The position numbers and the translations under genes are program-made. This document shows positions 3,651 through 64,000 of a DNA stretch of 64,000 bases, piece after piece. The stretch is from positions 44,710 through 108,709 of the IMG/VR virus record IMGVR_UViG_3300028048_003180. The stretch is one strand, 5' to 3'. Source of the stretch: a virus. Lineage: Duplodnaviria > Caudoviricetes. Within the stretch, counting starts at the first letter, position 1; each line of letters begins with the position of its first letter. The notes below the pieces were generated by a model. The model was not told the origin of the DNA. It made no database searches and worked only from the letters and a program-made list of their open reading frames with translations.

Positions 3651-6600
3651 TATTCAATGACATATTCGACACAAGAGACACCAACGTAATAGACGTAGAG
3701 AAGGTTCAGACGGTAAGGGACGTACTGTACGAGGGCAAGTACAATGTTCGTGACTACAGTTCCCAAGTGGAGGTCTATGACCCTGACACGGGGGAAACAT
3801 CATACCTTGCCATAAAGGATGACGGCGGACAGGCACTCAACGTCTGCGTCAAGGTCAACGGGCTTGTGAAGGACCTGTCATACGAGATACAGCCAGCTGA
3901 TGCGGTAGTCGTAGAGATACTGCCCGCTTCATCAGTGAGCAAGACCATCGAGGGAACCCTCGGTACTATATTCACAGTGGTCGGCGGCCTTGCGATGGCA
4001 GTGGGAGCTGCAATGCTCACTGTGGGAACGGGCGGTATAGGACTTGCGGTTGGACTTATGGTTGCCGGTGGACTCCTTGTCGCAGCCGGAACCTACATGA
4101 TTATGGATTCCCTTAAGTTCGACTATCCCGATGAGCAGAAGGCAGGCAAGAGCCTGACGGAAGAGCAGAGGAAAAAACTTGAAGGCGCGACCAACCAGAA
4201 CCTTATTGACATGCCGTTCCCTGTGGTGGTCGGCAAGATTGACGTTACCCCGTACACGGTGGGTACGCAGTACAACGAGCTTGTGTACAATGGCAGTAGC
4301 TGGGACGAATTCTTCGGAAGCAGGATGAGGACGACCCAGCTCCTTGCAATAGGCTACGCACCCCTCCTCCTCAAGGACATTAAGTTTGACGAGCTTGTGT
4401 CAGCCCACAACAACAACAACATACTGAACGGCGAACTCTCGTACCTTAATAATGACAACGACGTTCCCGGACACAGGCCCTCCACGTTCAACGGCAAGCC
4501 GCAGGTGGCTGACATTGAATCCAAGTGGAGGGGCAACAAGGTAAGGATGGAGATTTCCCAGTTCGGAAGGGACAGGAGTATATATCCGTTCACCGTCAAG
4601 CAGCAGAAGGTTGACGCTCCACTCCTCTATTGCTATGACGGACAGTATGCCGAGGTTGCCAATGACAGGCACATATCATGGCAGGGGGCATCGCTCCAGT
4701 GCGGCATGAGGACCAACACCATAAGGTTCTCAGACGGAATTCCCTACAAGGTGGTGGTCGGCATTGACATACCGGGCGGCCTTTGGGAAGCCAACAACAT
4801 AAAGGAAAAGACCGACACAAGGTATTCAAAGATACCAATGAACCTTGTCGTTCAGTGGAGGCCTGTCTACAAGTACATATCTGACAACGGGCTTGACTCT
4901 GCGGGTGCCGCCGGTGACGTTTATGACCGCAACAGGGACGGCTACGGAGTCCTCAGATATTCAGGATGGAGGAATTTCTCCGGCACGTCATACCTTGACG
5001 GAAAGTGGGCTGGCCCGGTCAAGCAGTGTACGTACACGGGCAACTCCCTGTCCTACTTCGTCTACAAGGACGGCAACACCCCGGCCTACAGGGACGGTTA
5101 TTACGGTTACTTCGTAAACAACAGCGGATACACGCTCACGGGAACGTTCCATAAGGTCCAGAAAAAGACTGACGAGGCCACCCTTTACAGGGAAAAATTT
5201 CTTTCCCTCATAAGGGACTGGGAAAGGCAGCATACGACAAGGGAAAGCTACATTAATGCCATATCTCCGACAAAGGGGTACGTCACGGTGGTCAACGAGG
5301 ACGGCACCAGGGCGGTCATGCCGTACCAGGCTTACTGGAAGAGCTATATATACCCGGAGATAAAGGAGTCCGTCCCTGATTCCGTCCGCCTCAGCCTTGA
5401 GGACCAGGCCCGTACATACGCAAGGAACAAGGTGGCCTCGCAGGATGCCGACTGGTGCGCCAGCCACCAGAACTACAACAACGGGACGACGTGGCACAAG
5501 ATGTCGTCACAGGAGATTATCGACTACAGTAATGCGGGCAAACTCAACGTGTCCTTTCATAATGAAAAGCAGAAGACTTGGGTCGGTCCCGGTAACTATA
5601 TCGGAGCACCCCAAGGCTACTGGCATACTGAAACGGTCAGAGTCTACGACTACTCGAGCGCAAGTTCCGACGTTTTAATCCAGAACGGTGTTCCTTACGC
5701 TCAGGACAACCCCTATGCGAATTCAATCGCCCAGATAGAGGTAAATGCAAACAAGGGCCTTTCGGCAGGAACGGGAGCCAACAGCAACCCGACATGGTTC
5801 GGGGTGAGGTGCTTCTCGCTCGGCGAGTTCTCGCTTGGCAAGACGTTCTACCAGAGGGACATGTCGGAACCGAACTTCCAGTCAGCCCTTAATATTGGTG
5901 CGAATGACGTTGACAATGCAAAGGACGAGATGCGCTTCGAGATTTGTGCGGAGCTCACCCAAGAGGACATCCTTGACCTCCTGAACAGGAACCCAAGGTC
6001 CATAAGGGCCGGGGAAGACGGAGAGGTGCCTGAGCTTCTGGGCAAGACGAACTGCATCATAGACTCAATCCAGGTCCGCGTGGTAAGGCTTACCCCCTGC
6101 TATATCGACAACAACAGCGGGGAGATTAAGTACAAATACTCCGATGTCGTCAAGTGGAGCTACTTGAGGACGTACTGCCTTGACAAGCAGAGGCTCCTTG
6201 ACAGCATAGACAACAAGACGGAGGATGCCATAGTCGGCGGCAAGGCAGTCAAGATTGCCCCTATAGACTGCTCCCTTGAGACGTTCGACAGTAGGGACCC
6301 GGACATACATGAGTACCCGACGTGGAACACATGGGACATACTTTCGTTCCGTTCCGTCCCTGTGGCAAAGGAGGACGAGGAGAAGCTGTGCCTCCTTGGG
6401 GTCGAGGCCGAGCCTGACCCGCTGGGTGTCATGTCCGACAGTCTGAACAAGATAAGCCTTACGGCCCATGCCGTCACGCCGTCACTGAGGTCGAACTACA
6501 TACGCTATTGGTATACGGATGGCATTGGCTATTGGAAATATGACTCCTACGACACCCTTGAGACGAAGGATTCAGAGGAGCTTTACCTCACGTTCTCCCA

Positions 6601-9600
6601 GAGGGACTTCAGGTGGAAGCGCACTACTGCGGAGGAATTTACGGAAACACCCAAGTCCGTGCTCAAGAAGAACGGGACTACCCGCGTAGGATACTACTTC
6701 TCTGAAATGCACAACGCATGGGACAAAAAGTGGTTCCCGGCAAAGATTGAGAAGCGGCAGTGCATACAGTACATAACGGATGCCAACGGTGAGATAGTCT
6801 ACAATGAGGCAGGAGACCCGCTCATAGAGATGACGAGGGACGGCAACGACTGGATTCCGTTCATTTACAAGGAGATGGCGAGGAATACCGACTCCCTGGG
6901 AAGGTGGGTTGCAAGCAATGCGTTCCTCAGAACGTTCACGGAGCAGAACTCCATCGGGCAGCTTTTGGGGTTTGCCTGCGGGCAGAGCCTTGGCAGGAAT
7001 GCCTACTTCTACAATTCGCTCAACGACGACAAGTTCATACGGTACTGGTACGACGACGTATCAAAGGGAAAATACTACTACTTCGACACGGACGACACCG
7101 TGCTTGACCTGGAGCACAAGCCTGTATGGAGCGATGAGGGTGACCCTTATGACCTCCCGCAGTGGACTTATGACGGATGGGCGGAAGGTTCGGAAATAGA
7201 GTTCCGCTCCGCCTCACTTACAGAAATCGGCAGCGGTTATTACTACAGCATAAGGAAGGCAGACAACGCCTTCAACATGATGGCCCTCAAGGAAGCCTTT
7301 GAATATACGGAGGCTATAGACATAGGAAAAAGTGCGGTGGGCCCCATCCCGTACAAGTGCAACATGTACATAACGAACCAGCAGAAGGCACTCGCGCTAA
7401 TGCAGACAATTCTTGTCACCGCGAGGGCGTTCTGGTTCTTCGATGAATACGGACGCTTCGAGGTTCACAACGACAAGCCCAAAAAGAACCCTGTCCTTAT
7501 GATAACGGACGAGAACTCCCTCCAGTCGTCGAATACGAGGGACTTTTCAAGGGGAATAGCAGGCTACCACATTACGTTCCAGGATGAGTCCAACGGATTC
7601 CAGACGGGGGAAGTCTACGTACTGAGGGAGGGGCAGACAAGGAACTCCCATACAAGGGATATAATTGACCAGACGATAAACGGCGTTACGAACGCGGAGC
7701 AGGCATGGTGCCTTGGCGCATACATGCTTGCCTGTTCCATAACCCAGAAGGAGTCATGGTCAAGGAAGCTCAACCATGTAGGCGGAAGCCTGACGATAGG
7801 CTCGCTTGTCTCCGTCCAGAGCTCAACCCTTATGATAGGGACTGACACTTCGGGAAGGATTGTAAGGCTTATAGAGGACGAGAATTTCATCTACGGGTTC
7901 ATCTGCGACCTCACCTATGACTACAGGGAAGAGTATGGGCAGAATGGCGAGAACGTACAGGGATGCTCCATCTTCCAGGCAGGGGCAAAGAGTCACTCAA
8001 AGGTTGTAACTCTCAGGTTTGCCAGTGCCGCACAACAGCAGCAGGGAATAACGGTGGAAACGGAGGACCCAGAATACGCAATCAACAGCGGAACATACGC
8101 AAACCTTAAGGGTCAGACGAATCTGGTACTCTTTGAAAAGAAAATAATTAAGCAGACGGAGCGGGAGCTTGAGCAGGGGAATGACGAGGAGACGGGAACC
8201 AAGGTGTTCACCCAGTTCATTCCAAAGCCGGGGGACGTGGTTGCCTTCGGCAACGTAGGCACAATCACGAAGCTTGGTGTCGTCTACCAGCTTTCCTTTG
8301 ACGAAAAGCACCATGTAACTGCCGGGATTTACCCCTATTACGAATCAATCTACCATGCAGGACGCTCACTCCCTGTACTGGAATCGTCCATGACGAAGCT
8401 TCCAAGGAACGACAATGCCCCTGTAGACTTTAGTGCGACATTCTCTGACGTAAGCGCAGCCATAGACGAGGCGAATAAGAATACGGCGGCCGCAATAAAC
8501 GGGCTTGTGAATGGAGGCGGTGACAGCAGTGCCGTGCCTGATGCCCCTGTAATGCTTGAGGCAAAGGCCTTTGAAAAGGAGATTCTGCTTAAGGCCCGTG
8601 CTGACGGTGCAGGCCTTAAGAACAGTGTGGTTGAAGTTGACTGGCAGCTGTTTAAGTGGACACCTGACGTAGAGACTGCGGACGAGAACTTGTGGGACTG
8701 GGAGGACGCGGGCACGACACCTACGCTTAGCGGGGAGTATGTGTTTGACAGGGACACTGACGGCTATCCTGAAAGGGAGGACCTGAACGGGACTGAATCT
8801 GCCTGGTTCTTCAGGTGCCGGATAAAGAATCAGTACGGGAATGACTCTGAATGGAGCCGCAAGATGGCGGTGCAGACCTACAGGTATGGCACTTGGCTGC
8901 TCGGTGCGCCCGCAATAGTGCCGAGAGTTACCAGCAGGTGTGTTACGCTGAAACTTTCCCAGCCACCAAGGGCGGGGGACAGGGAGCAGTACGGAACCGT
9001 TCGCTACAGGATTGAGGTAATGCGCCCTGACATTGATGAAAATTACTTCAAGCCTTCTATTGACCTCAACCCATATGCTGCAGAGGAGAACTACAAGGAC
9101 GGTGAGGGATATGTCATAAGCGACGGTACGTACATACAGGTGATGCCTCTCAAGGGACAGGATTCAGAACTAATAGAAAACACGTTGTACATGTTCCGCG
9201 TAACGGCAGAGAATGAGACCAGTATATCTGAGAGTTCCGTTATAAATGTAATCACTGAATGTGACTCTATACGCGACATAGTGAAGGCCCGTGAGACTGC
9301 AAAGGAAGCCTACATATCACAGCTTTCCGCAATCAGCGCGAACATGGGGTGCATATCAAGCGGTTCTTTCAACGGCTCGGACACAAACTTTTGGGAGCTT
9401 TCCTCTTTTATTGATGATTTTAATGTAAACCATCATGAGGGGGCATTCCGGGTAGGAGGAGTGGACGAATTTCTGCATGTAATTCCTGTTGACGAGGATG
9501 GTAATGACATAACGAGTGATACCCCCGTTTCTGTTGAACCCGCATCGTACCGCATTGAATTTCAGATCGGCAACTTCAAGGTAAAGTCAGACCAGACGAA

Positions 9601-10186
9601 CTTTATCAACGAACTTACCATATACAACGACAAAGACTATTCAGAGCGGCTCTGCGTGTCATACACAGGCTTGCTCAGGCAGGTTCTGCCGGGGGCAACG
9701 TCACCGGACGACTGGGGGAATGCCGCACCCGGAAGCATAACAAGCGTACCTTTCGCAAAGGCGACAAAGGAGGGGAACGCCTGCTTTACAAACGTCCCTA
9801 TTGAAGAGCTTCCGGCTACAAAGCGGTTCGTTACTGGCACCCAGTCGGCCTACAACCTTCAGGATACGGTGACTGACATATACGGGCAGAACCCTGAGAA
9901 TTTAGTCCTTGACCAGGCCAACCTCATAAACACGGCAGAAGGTTGCCCTGTGCTTGTTAATGAAGGAGTCCCCGTCACAAAAGCCTACGAGGGGGAGATA
10001 AAGATAGACAAGGAAAGCAAGTACGTTGCTTACTGGAATAAGGGTGGGGTCAGGTGTGATTCAGGAACCGCAAGGAGCGTATTCGAGGCGGCAAGAGAAG
10101 CCTGGCGAGCCAGCAGGAGTACGGAATGGGGACTGACACAAGAACAGGCCAGCACACTTGACCTTGAAGACATGGAGGAATTATGA
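3635..10186 (+). CDS. Tail tip / central fibre protein (gpI-like N-terminus fused to gpJ-like host-specificity protein), 2183 aa
   Basis: ATG 3635 after GGAGG; ubiquitin-like N-terminus, hydrophobic segment, P.VVG motif, FN3-like repeats, ISQLSAISANMG.I..G C-terminal motif. Confidence 0.8.
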   Translation: MAKVIVFNDIFDTRDTNVIDVEKVQTVRDVLYEGKYNVRDYSSQVEVYDPDTGETSYLAIKDDGGQALNVCVKVNGLVKDLSYEIQPADAVVVEILPASSVSKTIEGTLGTIFTVVGGLAMAVGAAMLTVGTGGIGLAVGLMVAGGLLVAAGTYMIMDSLKFDYPDEQKAGKSLTEEQRKKLEGATNQNLIDMPFPVVVGKIDVTPYTVGTQYNELVYNGSSWDEFFGSRMRTTQLLAIGYAPLLLKDIKFDELVSAHNNNNILNGELSYLNNDNDVPGHRPSTFNGKPQVADIESKWRGNKVRMEISQFGRDRSIYPFTVKQQKVDAPLLYCYDGQYAEVANDRHISWQGASLQCGMRTNTIRFSDGIPYKVVVGIDIPGGLWEANNIKEKTDTRYSKIPMNLVVQWRPVYKYISDNGLDSAGAAGDVYDRNRDGYGVLRYSGWRNFSGTSYLDGKWAGPVKQCTYTGNSLSYFVYKDGNTPAYRDGYYGYFVNNSGYTLTGTFHKVQKKTDEATLYREKFLSLIRDWERQHTTRESYINAISPTKGYVTVVNEDGTRAVMPYQAYWKSYIYPEIKESVPDSVRLSLEDQARTYARNKVASQDADWCASHQNYNNGTTWHKMSSQEIIDYSNAGKLNVSFHNEKQKTWVGPGNYIGAPQGYWHTETVRVYDYSSASSDVLIQNGVPYAQDNPYANSIAQIEVNANKGLSAGTGANSNPTWFGVRCFSLGEFSLGKTFYQRDMSEPNFQSALNIGANDVDNAKDEMRFEICAELTQEDILDLLNRNPRSIRAGEDGEVPELLGKTNCIIDSIQVRVVRLTPCYIDNNSGEIKYKYSDVVKWSYLRTYCLDKQRLLDSIDNKTEDAIVGGKAVKIAPIDCSLETFDSRDPDIHEYPTWNTWDILSFRSVPVAKEDEEKLCLLGVEAEPDPLGVMSDSLNKISLTAHAVTPSLRSNYIRYWYTDGIGYWKYDSYDTLETKDSEELYLTFSQRDFRWKRTTAEEFTETPKSVLKKNGTTRVGYYFSEMHNAWDKKWFPAKIEKRQCIQYITDANGEIVYNEAGDPLIEMTRDGNDWIPFIYKEMARNTDSLGRWVASNAFLRTFTEQNSIGQLLGFACGQSLGRNAYFYNSLNDDKFIRYWYDDVSKGKYYYFDTDDTVLDLEHKPVWSDEGDPYDLPQWTYDGWAEGSEIEFRSASLTEIGSGYYYSIRKADNAFNMMALKEAFEYTEAIDIGKSAVGPIPYKCNMYITNQQKALALMQTILVTARAFWFFDEYGRFEVHNDKPKKNPVLMITDENSLQSSNTRDFSRGIAGYHITFQDESNGFQTGEVYVLREGQTRNSHTRDIIDQTINGVTNAEQAWCLGAYMLACSITQKESWSRKLNHVGGSLTIGSLVSVQSSTLMIGTDTSGRIVRLIEDENFIYGFICDLTYDYREEYGQNGENVQGCSIFQAGAKSHSKVVTLRFASAAQQQQGITVETEDPEYAINSGTYANLKGQTNLVLFEKKIIKQTERELEQGNDEETGTKVFTQFIPKPGDVVAFGNVGTITKLGVVYQLSFDEKHHVTAGIYPYYESIYHAGRSLPVLESSMTKLPRNDNAPVDFSATFSDVSAAIDEANKNTAAAINGLVNGGGDSSAVPDAPVMLEAKAFEKEILLKARADGAGLKNSVVEVDWQLFKWTPDVETADENLWDWEDAGTTPTLSGEYVFDRDTDGYPEREDLNGTESAWFFRCRIKNQYGNDSEWSRKMAVQTYRYGTWLLGAPAIVPRVTSRCVTLKLSQPPRAGDREQYGTVRYRIEVMRPDIDENYFKPSIDLNPYAAEENYKDGEGYVISDGTYIQVMPLKGQDSELIENTLYMFRVTAENETSISESSVINVITECDSIRDIVKARETAKEAYISQLSAISANMGCISSGSFNGSDTNFWELSSFIDDFNVNHHEGAFRVGGVDEFLHVIPVDEDGNDITSDTPVSVEPASYRIEFQIGNFKVKSDQTNFINELTIYNDKDYSERLCVSYTGLLRQVLPGATSPDDWGNAAPGSITSVPFAKATKEGNACFTNVPIEELPATKRFVTGTQSAYNLQDTVTDIYGQNPENLVLDQANLINTAEGCPVLVNEGVPVTKAYEGEIKIDKESKYVAYWNKGGVRCDSGTARSVFEAAREAWRASRSTEWGLTQEQASTLDLEDMEEL

Positions 10187-14105: not shown

Positions 14106-15077
14106 ATGCTATCAATAGTAGTTTTGTTTTGTGAGAAAGACATGTGGCATATACCGGGACTGGTACGCCACATGAAGGAAACCTTCAAGGATGAGTACGA
14201 GCTTGTGCTTATAGACAACAGGAAGGACAAATCTACGCCTCCGCCTGACGTAGGATGGCCAGTCTATGAGGCATCAGGGGACGGGACTTTCGAGGGGCGC
14301 AGGTTCTCACTGACGAAATGCAGGGGAAAATACGTCTGGTTCGTGGATGCGGACGACATAACCCTTGACTGGAGCGGTTTTGTAGACCTTGACAGTCAGG
14401 ATGCGGACTTCCTGTTCTTCAATGCGGCGGAGCTCAGGGATGAAAGGTTCGGGCCTATGTACAGCGGTGACATTCCTACATTCCTCATGCAGCAGGGGGA
14501 TGTACTCCATGAGGATATAAGGCTTGAAGTGAACCTGGATTCGTTCCTTCACGTGTACCTCCCGCTCTGGAACAAGTTCATAAGGCTTGATTTTGCAAGG
14601 CGGGTCTATGACATGGTGCCTCCCCTTCCCTCTGTCACAGACCACGAAGACTCCCTTATGAGCGCAATGCTCCTCAAACATGCAGAGTCTGTTTCTGACT
14701 GGACGGACAAGACCATTTACATCTATGACTCAAGGACAAGCACTTCATCGGTTGGAACGTCTCAGACGGTCGCGAAGTATAAGGCACTGAACAAGGGGCA
14801 GCAGAGGCTGCTGGAGTTTGCAAAGGGACACTTTACGGAGAAGGAGTGGTCAGACCTTGGCCTTGACCTGTATTTCTACGGTGACTATTACTGGAGGTTC
14901 CGGAAAATCCAGTCCTTGCCGGAGAAAGTGGAGGTCTTGAGGTTTATTACCGAAGAGTTCAGTTATGAGAACATACTGGGAATGCTGAAGTTTGCAGAGC
15001 AGTTTGACGAGTACAACCGCCGGATTATCATGGAAAGGTGTATCACCCGTTACTGCCTGAAGGATGTAAAGTTCTAA
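14106..15077 (+). CDS. Glycosyltransferase family 2
   Basis: MLSIVV start, ELVLIDN, GKYVWFVDADD (DxD), LWNKFIR, HED motif. Confidence 0.85.
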   Translation: MLSIVVLFCEKDMWHIPGLVRHMKETFKDEYELVLIDNRKDKSTPPPDVGWPVYEASGDGTFEGRRFSLTKCRGKYVWFVDADDITLDWSGFVDLDSQDADFLFFNAAELRDERFGPMYSGDIPTFLMQQGDVLHEDIRLEVNLDSFLHVYLPLWNKFIRLDFARRVYDMVPPLPSVTDHEDSLMSAMLLKHAESVSDWTDKTIYIYDSRTSTSSVGTSQTVAKYKALNKGQQRLLEFAKGHFTEKEWSDLGLDLYFYGDYYWRFRKIQSLPEKVEVLRFITEEFSYENILGMLKFAEQFDEYNRRIIMERCITRYCLKDVKF

Positions 15078-15730
15078 ATCGTCCTGCTGAGGACTCCCAG
15101 TACGCGCCCTACCACCATGAACCTGCACTTGTCATACTCGTCAAGCCTTACCGTGTAAGGGGGGTACCTTGTGTTGTCGCAGGCAACGCTCGTTTCATGG
15201 GGAAGTTGCGAAAGCCTTTTCACTGAAACCTGTCCGCCAAGGCTTACCGCATATAGCCCGTTGGCCGTAACTGCTGACGTTTCGGAGCATATAACAACGG
15301 AGCCGTTGGGAATCGTAGGTTCCATGTAGTCGCCTGAGACCCGGACGCATACCTTGGAGCCGGACGTGGACTCAAGCCATTCGGGTGCAGGAATCCAGAG
15401 TGCCGCCTTCCGCGGGGGAAACAGTTCGTCTGAAAGGACAGGCACGAAAGTCCCGCTTTCAGAGCCGCTGCCTCCTATGACCACAACCCTGTTGTCTTTC
15501 CCTTCAAGAAGGAACTCAACGGAGGTGTCCAGTATCTTGGATATTCTGAGGACTGTATGGGAGTTCGGGTATGAAGCCTGGTGCTTCCAGTCGGAGAATA
15601 CGTTTGAGTTAAGTCCGGCCTGCCTTATGAGCTCATTTTTCGTCATGTTCTTGTCATGCAGGAGTTTCTCTATACGCACGATAAACTCCGGCGGCAGCCT
15701 TTCCTTTTTTTGTTTGTGATTTGTTTCCAT
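15074..15730 (-). CDS. CI/LexA-like repressor (XRE HTH + S24 peptidase domain)
   Basis: HTH ...ISKILDTSVEFLL; VSGDYMEPTIPNG and VKRL; the usual catalytic Ser of GDSM appears as Tyr. Confidence 0.85.
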   Translation of the reverse strand: METNHKQKKERLPPEFIVRIEKLLHDKNMTKNELIRQAGLNSNVFSDWKHQASYPNSHTVLRISKILDTSVEFLLEGKDNRVVVIGGSGSESGTFVPVLSDELFPPRKAALWIPAPEWLESTSGSKVCVRVSGDYMEPTIPNGSVVICSETSAVTANGLYAVSLGGQVSVKRLSQLPHETSVACDNTRYPPYTVRLDEYDKCRFMVVGRVLGVLSRTI

Positions 15731-15780: not shown

Positions 15781-15809
15781 TTGACTTATACAAGATTTTA
15801 CGTTATCCT
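15781..15809 (+). promoter_or_regulatory. PR-like promoter TTGACT-17-TATCCT with putative operator
   Basis: Divergent from cI; ttgacttatacaagatttt resembles ttgactttataaagatttt at 16603. Confidence 0.55.
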
Positions 15810-15858
15810 ATAATTAGTCATATCTTGATATATTTCATTATATTATGAGGTTTTTGTT

Positions 15859-16032
15859 ATGGAGAAAAAGGACTATAATATCATTTTGACCGTAAAGGAC
15901 GTGGCGGAGCTCTTCAAGGTTGAGGAGCAGACCGTCTACCACTGGGCCAACAACGGAACCCTGCCGTCCTTCAAGATAGGCAAGGTCATCCGTTTCAGAA
16001 GGAATGAAATATTTGGAATGCTTGATATTTAA
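15859..16032 (+). CDS. Cro/Xis-like HTH_17 protein (57 aa, not in ORF track)
   Basis: MEKKDYNIILTVKDVAELFKVEEQTVYHWANNGTLPSFKIGKVIRFRRNEIFGMLDI; GAGG upstream. Confidence 0.85.
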   Translation: MEKKDYNIILTVKDVAELFKVEEQTVYHWANNGTLPSFKIGKVIRFRRNEIFGMLDI

Positions 16033-16044
16033 GGAAGGGGCATT

Positions 16045-16269
16045 ATGGACAAGTGGACGGACAATCCTGAAGACAGGACGGTGGATGCCATCACGAGGCG
16101 TTACAAGGTGTGCAGGAAACGCACGGAGGCACTTTGCAAAAAGCACGGAGGGGATGATTTTTCAGAACCCTTGCCCGGTCAACAACCCCCACCTAAAGGA
16201 AGGGGCTTGCAAAAGCCCTTGTTGACTAGACCAAGTGCTTCGGGCACTACGTTATCCGTGAATACATAG
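16045..16269 (+). CDS. Hypothetical protein whose 3' end is supplied by the inserted element
   Basis: SD aaggaagggg; runs into the element at 16178. Confidence 0.45.
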   Translation: MDKWTDNPEDRTVDAITRRYKVCRKRTEALCKKHGGDDFSEPLPGQQPPPKGRGLQKPLLTRPSASGTTLSVNT

Positions 16270-16440
16270 GCACCAGTGGATGTTCGGTCTAGTCCACTGC
16301 TCTGCGGTACATGGTTAAACAGTTCTGAGGGGTAGGAACAGTGCTGTGTACTTAAAACCACGGAATAACATCGTCTAAGACCGCAAACAGACCTGGGTAA
16401 GTCTGAGCCGGTTCTTGTTACCGGCTGTTAAACTGCCTAA
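16178..16440 (+). ncRNA. omega-RNA / HEARO-like RNA
   Basis: Ordered motifs GTCAAC..CCCC..CTAAAG..GGGGCTTG..GTTGACTAG, ACTACGTT, AGGCACC..GGATG..AGTCC..GCTCTGCG, GTTAAACAG, ACAGTG, AAAACC..TAACAT; 3' limit approximate. Confidence 0.75.
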
Positions 16441-16508
16441 TTTTTACAGGAGGTAAAAAGGTGCTCCTCCTCCAGCTAAAGCAAGGGGTTTCCGCACCTT
16501 AATTTGCA
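16178..16508 (+). mobile_element. Non-autonomous IS200/IS605 (IscB-type) element lacking iscB
   Basis: End hairpins cccc-acctaaagga-agggg and ctcctcctccagctaaagcaagggg; starts GTCAAC; followed by ATAAA; residual SD plus 13-codon VLLLQLKQGVSAP. Confidence 0.75.
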
Positions 16509-16515
16509 ATAAACG

Positions 16516-16548
16516 AAAGCCGTGGGTTGGTTCCTGCGGCTTTTTTTT
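16516..16548 (+). terminator. Rho-independent terminator
   Basis: aaagccgtggg..cctgcggcttt followed by T8. Confidence 0.8.
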
Positions 16549-17227: not shown

Positions 17228-17650
17228 ATGTCAAAGAACACAAACATGGTTGTCGTGTCAGGCAACATCGTAAGGGACGTCGAGCTCAATGAGTCACAGA
17301 CTTTAATCCGCTTCTGCATTGCGAACTCCGAGTCAGTGAAGAAGGACGGCAAGTGGGAGGAGTACACCAACTACTTCGACATCAAGGGATTCGGCGGTAC
17401 CGTAAAGCTTGCACCTTACCTTGTGAAAGGTACTAAGGTAATCGTTACCGGATCACTCCATCAGGACAGATGGGAGAAGGACGGCCAGAAGAACAGCCGC
17501 ATTGTCATTAACTGTAGCAGCCTTGAGTTCGGAGGCAACGGAAAGAAGAAGGCTGAAAGCCAGGATGAAGGTGCACCAGCCGGGAGTTCAGGAAGCGGAG
17601 AGTTCAAAGAAGACCTCCCCTGGGATGAAAACGAAGATATTCCCTTCTAA
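17228..17650 (+). CDS. ssb: Single-stranded DNA-binding protein
   Basis: OB-fold N.VVVSGNIVRD...KG..V.V.G.L.QDRW; acidic tail EDIPF. Confidence 0.92.
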   Translation: MSKNTNMVVVSGNIVRDVELNESQTLIRFCIANSESVKKDGKWEEYTNYFDIKGFGGTVKLAPYLVKGTKVIVTGSLHQDRWEKDGQKNSRIVINCSSLEFGGNGKKKAESQDEGAPAGSSGSGEFKEDLPWDENEDIPF

Positions 17651-20621: not shown

Positions 20622-21026
20622 TTATCCTTGATTTTTTATATAATTTTGTAATGTCTTCTCTGAAACATCTCCAATAGTTGAAATAAAATAACCTCTAGTC
20701 CACAAATAATGCTTTCCGCTCCAATAATATCTGGATAAATAAGCATTATGTTTTTTCCATAAATCATAGGTGGAAACAGATTTCAGTTTATTTATCATTT
20801 CATAAATTACTGTTGTTGGAGTTGCCGTTATAAGAAAATGAATATGGTCTTTGTCTATCTCCATAGTCTCTATATGCCATTTATCCTGTAAAGACTCCGC
20901 TCTTTTCATTGAATTTAAAACATCATCTCTGATATCTGTTAAGCATTTTGTTCTGTATTTAGTAGAGAAGATAACATGGTATCTTAGTTTGAATTTTTCG
21001 TGATTCAATGTTTCATATTCACTCAT
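20622..21026 (-). CDS. tnpA: Y1 HUH transposase
   Basis: YHVIFSTKYR, DHIH, LWTRGYF.ST.G, YIKNQG. Confidence 0.95.
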   Translation of the reverse strand: MSEYETLNHEKFKLRYHVIFSTKYRTKCLTDIRDDVLNSMKRAESLQDKWHIETMEIDKDHIHFLITATPTTVIYEMINKLKSVSTYDLWKKHNAYLSRYYWSGKHYLWTRGYFISTIGDVSEKTLQNYIKNQG

Positions 21027-21114: not shown

Positions 21115-22416
21115 ATGTGTAAGACACGAGAAGAGAAAAACAAGCAGATTGCTCAGACAATAAAGGCTACCTATGAGAAAAGAGCCTCTCAGGTTTGTCG
21201 TGTCTTTACAGTAAAGATTCAGGATAATCAACTGTCTAAAGTTCAAAAAGAACAGTTGAAAATGATTTTTGTAGAAGCAAAGTGGTTAAAAAATTCAATT
21301 CTTGCTTGGATAAAAGAAAATCCAGAAAATAAAGTTTGGGATTACGATACAAAGAAGAAGACCATCATTCATAAAGATAAGGATATGAATGATGTCGAAG
21401 TTGAATTGAAATATATTCCTGCCTCTGTGAAGCAGTGTGTTCAATCAGAAATAATTTCAAACATCAGGACAATCATTACATTGCAGAAGAAAGGCTTCCA
21501 GTCTGGCGGGCATCTCAAGTTTGTAAAAGAAGTCTCATCTGTCAATTTCAAACAGTATGGGAAAACCCATAAGATAATATCCTCAAAAAGAATTAAGTTA
21601 CAGGGTATATCAGGTTCTCTGATGGTAAACGGACTCAAGCAGTTCTTGAATAAAAATCTTGAATATGCAAATGCAAAATTACTGAATACACCGCAGGGGT
21701 ATTACGTTCAGTTCACGACTTATGTAGATAAATCGAAGATAGCAAATAAACAGACCAATGGTAAGGTTTTAGGTATAGATTTCGGATGCGAGACATCCTT
21801 CACTACAAGTGAGGGTGAAAAAATCGAAGCTTCAGTTCAAGAAAGTGAGCGTATCAAGCGTCTTTCATTAAGAATGAACAAACGTCAAAAGAAAGGCTCA
21901 AAGAACTGGTGGCGGACAGTGCATCTGTTACGAAAAGAATACCAGAAACTTACCAACCAGAAAAACGACCTTGCCAACAAACTTGTTGCAAAATTCTCTG
22001 AATATGACACTGTTATTATTCAGGATGAACAGCTTAGTAATTGGCATAAAGGCAATCACGGGAAGAAAGTTCAGCGCTCAGTATTAGGAAGAGTAAAATC
22101 AAAGCTTCTTCTTAAGTCTAATGTAGTAGTCCTGTCAAAGAATTGTCCTACGACAAAATTGTGTACAAAATGTGGACAATGGCATGATGAAATGAGAGTT
22201 TGGAACAGGATTTTCAAATGTGACTGCGGAGTTGAAATGGATAGAGATATTCATGCGGCTCAGAATATGGTCTGGTTTTATGAAAATAAAGTAGGTGTGG
22301 GACGCACCAATTTCAAGCGTGTGGAGATTAAAGCACTTGTATCAGAGGCTCTTGCTTCTGGTATCAAACTCGAATCTGTGAAGCACGAAGCTGACATGGC
22401 TTTAGCCTGTCAGTAG
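21115..22416 (+). CDS. tnpB: RNA-guided endonuclease TnpB
   Basis: GIDFG (RuvC-I), IIQDE (atypical RuvC-II), CTKCG..CDCG Zn finger, DRDIHAAQN (RuvC-III). Confidence 0.9.
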   Translation: MCKTREEKNKQIAQTIKATYEKRASQVCRVFTVKIQDNQLSKVQKEQLKMIFVEAKWLKNSILAWIKENPENKVWDYDTKKKTIIHKDKDMNDVEVELKYIPASVKQCVQSEIISNIRTIITLQKKGFQSGGHLKFVKEVSSVNFKQYGKTHKIISSKRIKLQGISGSLMVNGLKQFLNKNLEYANAKLLNTPQGYYVQFTTYVDKSKIANKQTNGKVLGIDFGCETSFTTSEGEKIEASVQESERIKRLSLRMNKRQKKGSKNWWRTVHLLRKEYQKLTNQKNDLANKLVAKFSEYDTVIIQDEQLSNWHKGNHGKKVQRSVLGRVKSKLLLKSNVVVLSKNCPTTKLCTKCGQWHDEMRVWNRIFKCDCGVEMDRDIHAAQNMVWFYENKVGVGRTNFKRVEIKALVSEALASGIKLESVKHEADMALACQ

Positions 22417-61804: not shown

Positions 61805-63055
61805 TCAGGCAGTAATCTCCTTAAGAATTTGCCCGAACATTGCCTTTGCAAAGTTGGGCGGCACGGCATTGCCGATTTGCTTTACAATCTCAACCTTCGT
61901 TCCAGTGAACTTGTAATCACTCGGAAAGCCTGTGGCTGCAGCAAGTTCTTTTGGTTGCAACATACGAAAACCTAGTTCAATGCCGTCAGTCGTTCCGCAT
62001 ATAGCAAACCTGTCTTTTGTTGTGATTGTCGGAAGCGGAATTCCGACTGGATGAGCACATCCATTGCCGTAGTATTCCGTAATGAACGGTTGTACCAGAC
62101 AATGCTCCTGTTTTGTGCAAATTGTTGAAAGTGGTTTGCTAATTTCACGGTTCCTGTTCTTTGCCGAAGTCTGTCCGATAGCAGACACAAATGGTTGTAT
62201 CAGCATGTGATGTGCACCACTGCAACTTATTGTAGACACAGGTTTTTGTATGCTTTCTGATGTGGACTGACCGTACAGAAGGGCAATGAACGGTTCTGCA
62301 TAGTCTCCCCAGAATTCGCGGATTCCGCATTCAATCCTGCGCAATGTTGCGGCGGCCAGAGGCTTCTTTCTGTCCTTGATAAGCTGACAAGGAATTGACC
62401 AGTCGATTATCTCAGCCGCGGCCCTCCATTTAGGAAGAAACATGTCGCCGTCCTTTGTGTTTGTCATTTTTGGCCATACAATCCTTTTTCCGCAATCTCT
62501 GCGTACAGCCTGGATAAAAAGCCTTCTTCTTGATGTAGGTGCTCCGTAATCAGCCGCACAAAGGACCTTGAAAGAAACCACATAATTCAAAGACTGTAAA
62601 CATCTGACAAACATGTTGAATGTCTGACCTTTCTTTTCTGCGATTGTTTTTCCGTCCGGTGTAAGAGGTCCCCAGTTCTGGAATTCAGGGACATTCTCTA
62701 CAATTATTCTTTTCGGGTGCAAAATTTCTGCAAACCTGAGAACATCCCATGCAGGGGCTCTCATCTGCTCATTCTTTGGCTTGCCTCCGCGGGCAACAGA
62801 ATGGTGAGTGCAGGCAGGAGAGGCCCAGAGCAGGTCAGTGTCAACGGCAGCCTTAAGAGTCTCCGGGTTTATTGTCTGTACGTCCTCTACACGGTGCTCT
62901 GCAAAAGGGTAATTGGCTGCATGAGTCTCAATTGCCCTTTCCCAGTGATTAATAGCGGACATATTTACGTCACAATCATATTCATGTGCGGCCTGTACAA
63001 GCCCTGTAGACTCTCCGCCGCCGCCGCAAAACATATCAACGATATTCAAGGTCAT
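61805..63055 (-). CDS. C5 cytosine DNA methyltransferase
   Basis: DMFCGGGG, ASPAC, ENV, YGAPTSRRRLF, QIGNAVP. Confidence 0.93.
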   Translation of the reverse strand: MTLNIVDMFCGGGGESTGLVQAAHEYDCDVNMSAINHWERAIETHAANYPFAEHRVEDVQTINPETLKAAVDTDLLWASPACTHHSVARGGKPKNEQMRAPAWDVLRFAEILHPKRIIVENVPEFQNWGPLTPDGKTIAEKKGQTFNMFVRCLQSLNYVVSFKVLCAADYGAPTSRRRLFIQAVRRDCGKRIVWPKMTNTKDGDMFLPKWRAAAEIIDWSIPCQLIKDRKKPLAAATLRRIECGIREFWGDYAEPFIALLYGQSTSESIQKPVSTISCSGAHHMLIQPFVSAIGQTSAKNRNREISKPLSTICTKQEHCLVQPFITEYYGNGCAHPVGIPLPTITTKDRFAICGTTDGIELGFRMLQPKELAAATGFPSDYKFTGTKVEIVKQIGNAVPPNFAKAMFGQILKEITA

Positions 63056-63129
63056 AAAAACACTTCCTTTCTTACAATAAAAAAAATACTACATACGACA
63101 ATTATTTGAATCGCCAATGAATAATAGCT

Positions 63130-63174
63130 GCCACCAAAAGGCAGACAGCTATTATCAAGCCACCAAAAGGCAGA
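63130..63174. repeat. 16-bp tandem direct repeat gccaccaaaaggcaga, first copy inside a 10-bp hairpin
   Basis: Copies at 63130-63145 and 63159-63174; stem 63121-63130/63146-63155. Confidence 0.85.
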
Positions 63175-63583
63175 ACTAAGTCTTCATACATCATCCCCCA
63201 GAACAACAGGCCTTGCACCTTTCACCCCTTCTTGTCATTCCAAGCCAGAGTTTCAAATATGGTTGAATGGAAGTTCTGGATGCACTTTTCAACGTAGTCC
63301 GCAAGGACATAATCAGGAGTTTTACAGGCAGTGCTTAATCCATACTTATCAAGCAACATTGTAAGCTCTGTCTTGAACTTCTTCACATTATCTCTGTTCA
63401 GCATCCTCATCCACCTTTACTTCAATAGGATTCCAGAGGTGTTCCATTTCTAAAAGGAACACAACGTCTGCAAGATTAAACTCTTCATCTCCTGCTTTTA
63501 ATTTAACCTCAGCCAGTGAATAACCGTCATGGCACAAGGACTGGAATCTTAGCGTGAGTTCCTGTAACGTCATTTGTCTCCCC

Positions 63584-64000
63584 TTAAAACGGAATGTCCT
63601 CGCTGTAGTCATATCCGCTTTCGTCATCTTCTGACTGGGTAGGGGAGCCATTGGACTGAACCTTGTCACTCTGACCGCCAAGGAACTGAACGCTGTCTGC
63701 GATTATGACAATCCTACTGGATTTCTTCCCGTCTTTAGATACCCACCTGTCCTGTTTCAGTGTCCCAGCAACAGCAACCTGCCTTCCCTTCGTAAGCCAC
63801 TGCTTAAGGTTCTCCGCCTGCTTTCCAAAAACTGTCGCATCAAAGAATGATGCCTCATCAACCCATTGTTCATTCTTTTTGACCCTGCGGTTGACTGCAA
63901 GACTCATCTTTCCGATTGCCATGCCGCCCTGTGTATAGGACAGATCCATTTCTCTTGTGAGCCTTCCGACTAAAACAACACTGCATATATCATTTGCCAT
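63584..64000 (-). CDS. ssb: Single-stranded DNA-binding protein
   Basis: VVLVGRLTR, LAVNRR, FFD...FGKQAE, QDRW, tail EDIPF. Confidence 0.93.
   Translation of the reverse strand: MANDICSVVLVGRLTREMDLSYTQGGMAIGKMSLAVNRRVKKNEQWVDEASFFDATVFGKQAENLKQWLTKGRQVAVAGTLKQDRWVSKDGKKSSRIVIIADSVQFLGGQSDKVQSNGSPTQSEDDESGYDYSEDIPF

Follow-up and report, generated by a model that had tools for sequence, protein, structure and literature searches.

Sequence evidence for a protein-less, omega-RNA-bearing mini-ISC transposon in the early operons of temperate phages

Locus and features

The DNA analysed here, referred to as the window, is the 64-kb right-hand part of an IMG/VR provirus record of 108.7 kb. According to the annotation of the window, a lambdoid-type switch region houses an element of 331 bp. 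The features of this region and of a separate transposon downstream are given below, where L004 and L005 are related IMG/VR phages, L006 is a phage contig with a full-length IscB element and G407 is a relative used for the boundaries of the downstream transposon.

15074-15730, minus strand: CI-like repressor with HTH and S24 (Peptidase_S24) domains
15781-15814, plus strand: promoter-like sites of the early (cro-side) operon, from a consensus scan (TTGACT-17-TATCCT and TATACA-16-TATAAT)
15859-16032, plus strand: HTH_17 Cro/Xis-like gene
16045-16177, plus strand: first 44 codons of a small early ORF that is cut off by the element (70 aa in L004 and L005)
16162-16177, plus strand: guide position, the 16 nt 5' of the scaffold (tcagaacccttgcccg), by direct reading
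16178-16388, plus strand: HEARO / IscB omega-RNA scaffold (RF02033), with 89% identity to the IscB-linked omega-RNA of L006
16389-16439, plus strand: 3' extension of the omega-RNA with two small hairpins (CAGAC...GTCTG and AGCCGG...CCGGCT)
16440-16502, plus strand: remnant of iscB, last ~21 codons, with 85% identity to L006 8448-8514
16458-16508, plus strand: the other transposon end, an outer stem AAGGTGC/GCACCTT and an imperfect hairpin with a TAAA loop, then TTAATTTGCA
16509-16514, plus strand: target site and TAM-like flank ATAAAC
16515-16544, plus strand: intrinsic terminator, from a consensus scan, conserved in L004 and L005
20568-22419, plus strand: separate IS200/IS605 element, boundaries from G407
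20622-21026, minus strand: tnpA (Pfam Y1_Tnp, 103.7 bits)
21115-22416, plus strand: tnpB (OrfB_IS605 and Cas12f1-like_TNB)

The promoter-like sites lie 5' of the element in the same orientation, which is a consensus match alone and no proof of function. An initial annotation, made from the letters of the sequence, had placed the element sense to an early promoter-like site and just before a terminator, and both were recovered by the consensus scan. The terminator belongs to the small phage ORF and lies outside the element. It is followed on its 3' side by a second promoter-like site, more small ORFs and an SSB gene at 17228 on the plus strand. The CI-like repressor shares 81% identity with the repressors of phages L002 and L003.

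For the small early ORF at 16045, no match to a Pfam or PHROG family was found. In L004 and L005, in which both genes flanking the element are present, this ORF is finished as ...EPLP|DDVYRRVCDDIEYLTMPKKLKVMGGK*. In the window, its truncated frame reads into the omega-RNA and stops at the TAG at 16267-16269. An exact-protein lookup returned no record of the resulting fusion protein of ORF and element.

Identity and integrity of the omega-RNA

A search of the whole window with Rfam cmscan identified HEARO (RF02033) at 16178-16388 on the plus strand with 154.9 bits, compared to a gathering cut-off of 83, and an E-value of 1e-32. The match is not truncated, as it spans model positions 1-211 of 211, and it is the sole Rfam match above the gathering score in the whole 64-kb window. 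When the model pairs were mapped onto the sequence, standard pairs were found at 62 of the 65 alignable HEARO pairs. This covariance-model check bears out the omega-RNA that had been recognised from its ordered motifs. Although the match is full-length and far above the gathering score, the definition of the RF02033 family includes a neighbouring ORF for an HNH endonuclease, and the window element has none beside it.

The phage contig L006 (IMGVR_UViG_3300028591_000787) was found by an exact-match scan with the first 29 nt of the element. It contains a HEARO RNA at 7003-7213 (136.6 bits), followed by an IscB of 424 aa at 7237-8511 with RRXRR (217 bits) and HNH domains. The 89% identity between the omega-RNAs was determined over window positions 16178-16383. 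Among the 22 differences between the two omega-RNAs, four pairs are compensatory double changes, and no pair is broken on the window side. For this reason, the structure of the omega-RNA can be regarded as free of decay. A 60-aa antisense ORF within the omega-RNA (16179-16361) was considered as a gene and rejected; 11 of its 60 residues differ from L006, with about 20 base changes.

The RF02033 model does not contain the structural elements located downstream (Meers 2023, PMC10055086). In the window, these positions are occupied by the 3' extension, which is identical in a second copy of the element found in the metagenome contig L087 and at or just past the end of which the junction of the iscB deletion is located. 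The same arrangement, with two hairpins separating the HEARO model end from the iscB ribosome-binding site, is common to many IscB loci. No sequence homolog of this middle piece (16384-16439, 51-56 nt) was found in L006 or in 80 genome IscB loci.

The omega-RNA of IscB consists of a scaffold derived from the transposon end and a 5' guide that is encoded outside the element (Meers 2023, PMC10055086). The guide had been read as the 5' flank ending in the 16 nt listed above, and its position agrees with this rule.

Deletion of iscB

The loss of iscB, which had been proposed from the window sequence, is confirmed as an internal deletion when the element is set against the full-length element of L006. 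The 85% identity at the far end covers window positions 16440-16505 and comprises the last ~21 iscB codons together with the element end. There, the remnant protein reads FLQEVKRC..., followed by a 1-nt frameshift and ...LKQGVSAP*, and the counterpart in L006 reads YLQEVKTCFLPKLKQGVYAR*. A remnant of the IscB C-terminus had been described before as 13 codons long. The remnant itself stands, while its length had to be corrected to ~21 codons including the frameshift. The AGGAGG that had been taken for a Shine-Dalgarno sequence is 3' coding sequence of iscB. It is not the iscB ribosome-binding site because L006 has ...TTACAGGAGGTGAAA... at the homologous place, where iscB encodes LQEVK from the same sequence. 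The deletion is estimated to reach from about the ribosome-binding site or start of iscB to ~21 codons before its stop codon, with the omega-RNA and the far end being kept.

Apart from the frameshifted remnant, no IscB ORF with RRXRR and HNH domains was found directly downstream of the omega-RNA. A search for iscB in the rest of the genome, suggested in the initial annotation, was negative, with no IscB anywhere in the 108.7-kb record; the same search finds the IscB in the record of L006 (positive control G405). A closer full-length parent was not found either. The best IscB-linked omega-RNA has 89% identity; nothing closer than 82-89% is present in 80 genome IscB loci and 401 sampled Lachnospiraceae genomes, the latter reaching at most 82%. 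The L006 element is like the window element in its omega-RNA (89%), its 3' end (85%) and the kind of its flank (ATGAAG). However, it encodes an intact IscB of 424 aa and does not have the additional pair of hairpins behind the HEARO core, and for these reasons it is considered a cousin and not the parent.

Three further sites in L006, at 4530-4620 (+), 9956-10050 (+) and 12790-12690 (-), share just the first ~35 nt of the element end (GTCAAC and the hairpin) and then continue into another conserved sequence of ~60 nt (...ACAACTTTTCTCGATTCATTGAGAyTGCCATTCAGATTCA). The ORFs beside these sites did not match a Pfam family, and an L006 ORF adjoining a shared end, which was considered as a TnpA, is not a TnpA. 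Termini of ~35 bp that are common to other IS605-type elements are a known feature of ISC transposons (PMC4810608), also seen here in L006, which explains these partial matches. The three sites probably belong to another element type with the same transposon end, comparable to the published ISC/IS605B pairs (PMC4810608).

Transposon ends and target site

The bounds of the element at 16178-16508, as given in the initial annotation, agree with the comparison to its relatives: the homology to L004 and L005 stops at 16177 and resumes at 16508, and L087 is identical from 16178 onwards. One transposon end is formed by the first ~50 nt of the scaffold, consisting of GTCAAC, the hairpin CCCCCACC-TAAA-GGAAGGGG and GTTGAC. 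The hairpins that had been noticed are present at both ends as imperfect hairpins, each with a TAAA loop, and the two ends have their homologs in those of the full-length L006 element. In the outer stem of the 3' end, a compensatory change was observed, with GGTGC/GCACC in the window compared to CGTGC/GCACG in L006; the DNA-fold z-scores for the 3' end alone are weak. As the last 6 nt differ between the copies, an alternative 3' boundary at 16502 (...CCTTAA) was considered. It was rejected because the homology of the relatives resumes at 16508 and because other close IscB elements end before ATGA, reaching a few variable bases past the 3' stem and directly abutting this motif.

ISC transposons have 5'-GTCA termini, insert at N|ATGA (also ATCA and ATAA) targets and do not create target duplications (Kapitonov 2016, PMC4810608). 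The 3' flanks of the three copies are ATAAAC in the window, ATGAAT in L087 and ATGAAG in L006, so that ATRAA is found in all of them. The TAM-like motif previously noted past the far end is therefore consistent with the published ISC targets N|ATGA/ATAA. ATRAA also agrees with the first five positions of NWRRNA, which is the TAM stated for OgeuIscB (PMC12660989). Based on the three flanks and the published ISC targets, ATRAA is a putative TAM of the window lineage. The alleles without the element read ttgcccg|ATGATG in L004 and L005 and cagggaat|ATGAAG at the second site, both being N|ATGA without a target duplication. The IS608 pairing rule between guide and cleavage sequences (TGAC with CAAG, TCAT with GAAA) agrees with the mini-element. 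It was given no weight as support; the rule failed to predict the target of the tnpA-tnpB element in the window.

Alleles without the element and loss of flanking sequence

The 16 nt before the break are identical in L004 and L005 and are followed there by ATGATG. An empty site in which both flanks join directly (...ttgcccg|ataaacg...) had been predicted for related phages, which is not what these two relatives contain, as they have 75 more bases between these points. The 75 bp complete the small ORF and are followed by the same terminator, and the 331-bp element stands in their place in the window. The right-hand break reads ...GGAAA|ATAACGG in L004 and L005 compared to ...TTTGCA|ATAAACG in the window.

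Next to the 3' end, flanking sequence was replaced in both copies, namely 75 bp in the window and ~130 bp in L087, and neither insertion is clean. A possible reason could be two-site cleavage by TnpA, for which the evidence points in both directions: the window junction agrees with a joining at two target motifs, but the tandem ATGA-ATGA kept in L087 disagrees with it. Both junctions are compatible with a microhomology of 2 nt. In addition, the relatives may be mosaic at the points of flank loss.

A second copy of the mini-element

When metagenomes were scanned once for a 27-mer of the middle piece, L087 was the sole match. This contig contains the same iscB-less element, of which the first 293 nt are 100% identical, with different flanks on both sides. 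The 5' flank of this copy, which is its guide position, is gaaagaatcagggaat, and on the 3' side the element directly meets ATGAATGAT, with which an ssb gene starts. The surrounding region is a phage early operon on one strand with an antirepressor, an HTH_17 gene, small ORFs, the element and ssb. In both copies, the element is in sense orientation within a phage early operon. Five differences to L087, all of them transitions, were observed in window positions 16466-16508, which are the last ~40 nt with the 3' hairpin and the terminal 6 nt.

The uninterrupted allele of this second site was found in eight contigs that encode the exact ssb protein present at the far end of the window. It consists of the HTH_17 gene, ORFs of 60 aa and 57 aa and ssb, and reads ...cagggaat|ATGAAGAAAAGG... 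at the insertion site. In L087, an ATG in frame with ssb is restored by the junction ...CTTACG|ATGA|ATGATATATGC. This ssb variant also occurs in an independent ENA sample, in which an 825-bp contig starts at the first base of the gene. Since a repeat would interrupt an assembly at this very point, the contig supports a filled allele there. A comparison of L087 2060-2070 with L098 4866-5011 places the ATG of ATGAAG in fusion with ssb codon 3 (MND... versus MAND...), and the flank deletion in L087 removes the GAGG ribosome-binding site of ssb.

The presence of the same deletion derivative at a second, unrelated site with different flanks shows that the mini-element moved after the deletion of iscB. 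Because the two interrupted genes are unrelated, the copies in the window and in L087 represent two transposition events and not one locus spread by recombination. A blastn search of the locus against GenBank phages gave no match, and exact-pattern scans of IMG/VR for stretches of the 3' end and of the middle piece were likewise negative. With just two copies in all collections scanned, the mini-element is not a prolific family. Given how little these two copies differ, purifying selection on the RNA following the loss of iscB cannot be read from them.

Candidate helper transposase

The separate IS200/IS605 element lies ~4 kb downstream of the mini-element, and its tnpA is the only gene for a Y1 transposase in the record. 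The end hairpins of this tnpA-tnpB element differ in sequence from those of the mini-element. Its TnpA is a possible helper for the mini-element. Compared to G407, the tnpA-tnpB element is placed as ...gggatatt|element|(ac)tattcacttcc..., and G407 has 343 bp with a small ORF (MIRIILFLWQ...) instead. Like the omega-RNA element, it stands where a relative has other DNA.

Proposed explanation and alternatives

The stretch at 16178-16508 is very probably a non-autonomous, protein-less derivative of an IscB element (ISC, IS200/IS605) that was mobilised into an ATGA target and would be usable with an IscB supplied in trans. What is observed is the family of the RNA, the architecture of the deletion, the movement of the derivative, its target site and the protospacer in sibling phages. 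An internal deletion took iscB and left a complete omega-RNA gene, which includes one transposon end, together with the other end. The resulting mini-element was then mobilised, presumably with a Y1 TnpA provided in trans, and inserted upstream of an ATGA target in a small early prophage gene, in the orientation of the early operon. The next 75 bp were lost during or after this insertion.

Biogenesis of omega-RNAs needs a transcription start outside the element, and the upstream genes are strongly biased towards the same orientation (PMC10055086). The sense orientation of both copies in early operons agrees with this bias. In the window, read-through from the phage early promoter would produce an omega-RNA with the guide tcagaacccttgcccg that ends at or before the phage terminator, because the guide of an IscB omega-RNA comes from the 5' flank and such an RNA lacks its own promoter. 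This RNA alone would be inactive and would need an IscB from a full-length copy in the host or in a co-resident phage, as found in L006. Stand-alone omega-RNAs are functional with IscB (Altae-Tran 2021, as reported in Hirano 2022, PMC9581776), and PATEs encoding omega-RNAs have been published (Meers 2023, PMC10055086). With IscB provided in trans, alleles without the element that combine a guide match with ATRA could be cleaved, so that the element would more readily be retained or copied. Such alleles, and hence would-be targets, are present in L004 and L005.

A more far-reaching reading is that of a weapon or gene drive, in which the early omega-RNA and an IscB from the host or a co-infecting phage cut siblings without the insertion and either kill or convert them. 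In L004 and L005, the 16-nt protospacer is preserved exactly, and the ATGATG after it is similar to the flanks of all three copies. However, both protospacer and TAM in empty alleles result automatically from an insertion at N|ATGA, and for this reason they are no evidence of selection for targeting. Similarly, the sense orientation in the early operon would suit such a role but is a general bias of IscB elements. The related IscB of L006 is phage-borne, and among HEARO effector fragments more than 16% come from viruses or prophages (PMC9755519). Co-infecting phages or plasmids are also recognised as targets of homing, and a TnpB drive in plasmids has been reported (PMC13565253). Nevertheless, the record contains no IscB, just two copies are known, and the truncation of a conserved phage gene is what any selfish insertion would cause. 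Taken together, a role as weapon or drive is improbable, and its conversion route by homologous repair, that is non-restorative homing, is doubtful to the same degree. The same low probability applies to a speculative extension, according to which the mini-element would be a twice helper-dependent specialist of temperate phages that uses phage early promoters and a borrowed IscB to cut siblings, with homing or competitor exclusion as the outcome and the flank deletions as scars.

Alternatively, the element could be an inert relic that formed in place, was never mobile after the loss of iscB and has no activity at all. The missing nuclease in the record, the frameshift in the iscB remnant and the low number of two copies would fit such a relic. 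It conflicts, however, with the identical deletion derivative at the second, unrelated site in L087 and with an RNA without structural decay that retains both ends, so that this reading is very unlikely. Another suggestion is a decoy or sponge, with the phage scaffold titrating a host IscB away from its own guides. An intact scaffold and its position in the early transcript, these alone, would suit it. Yet IscB is not known as an anti-phage defence, and the role published for it is to retain the transposon (PMC10055086). Moreover, a decoy would not carry a functional guide, and no sequence feature sets the window copy apart from an ordinary omega-RNA. This makes a decoy extremely improbable.

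Relation to known systems

The preferred reading as a non-autonomous IscB derivative places the element close to two published groups. Stand-alone omega-RNAs and PATEs (PMC10055086 and PMC9581776) likewise possess transposon ends and a gene for a guide RNA, lack a nuclease gene, rely on a nuclease and a TnpA in trans and take their guide from the flank outside the end. The PATEs of Geobacillus are of the TnpB type, whereas the window element is of the IscB type and is carried by temperate phages. For the window element, two copies with different flanks and their empty alleles are documented, while its use in trans is putative. Non-autonomous ISC elements such as ISC1-1_MA (PMC4810608) share the 5'-GTCA, the subterminal imperfect hairpins, the N|ATGA target and the lack of a target duplication. 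They are mobilised in trans by a Y1 transposase (PMC4810608), which is putative for the window element. In contrast to ISC elements, which encode IscB, only ~21 codons of the gene are kept here. Judged by its sequence, this is a mini-ISC transposon with an omega-RNA but no protein, recently mobile in temperate phages from a community of the gut or rumen type.

Stand-alone omega-RNAs, omega-RNA-bearing PATEs, viral and phage IscB loci and homing into co-resident replicons have already been published, and no new mechanism is described here. The element is a natural example of a transposon remnant that keeps just the ends for TnpA and the guide RNA for IscB. It provides direct evidence for the movement of a nuclease-less form, with matching empty sites preserved in sibling phages. 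With its guide, target and candidate TAM, it offers a ready test system for the use of orphan omega-RNAs in trans and for biased inheritance among co-infecting phages.

Composition of the record

The end of the record lies inside the early region of a second prophage, at window positions 61805-64000 on the minus strand, where ssb (63584-64000) and a C5 DNA methylase gene (61805-63055) are encoded. Because of this early region at its end, the record, although designated a provirus, seems to combine portions of two phages that each encode an ssb of their own. Contigs L098-L105 from other samples extend the second prophage with the 57-aa and 60-aa ORFs, the HTH_17 gene and a gene of 229 aa, beyond which they contain either an integrase gene or host genes.
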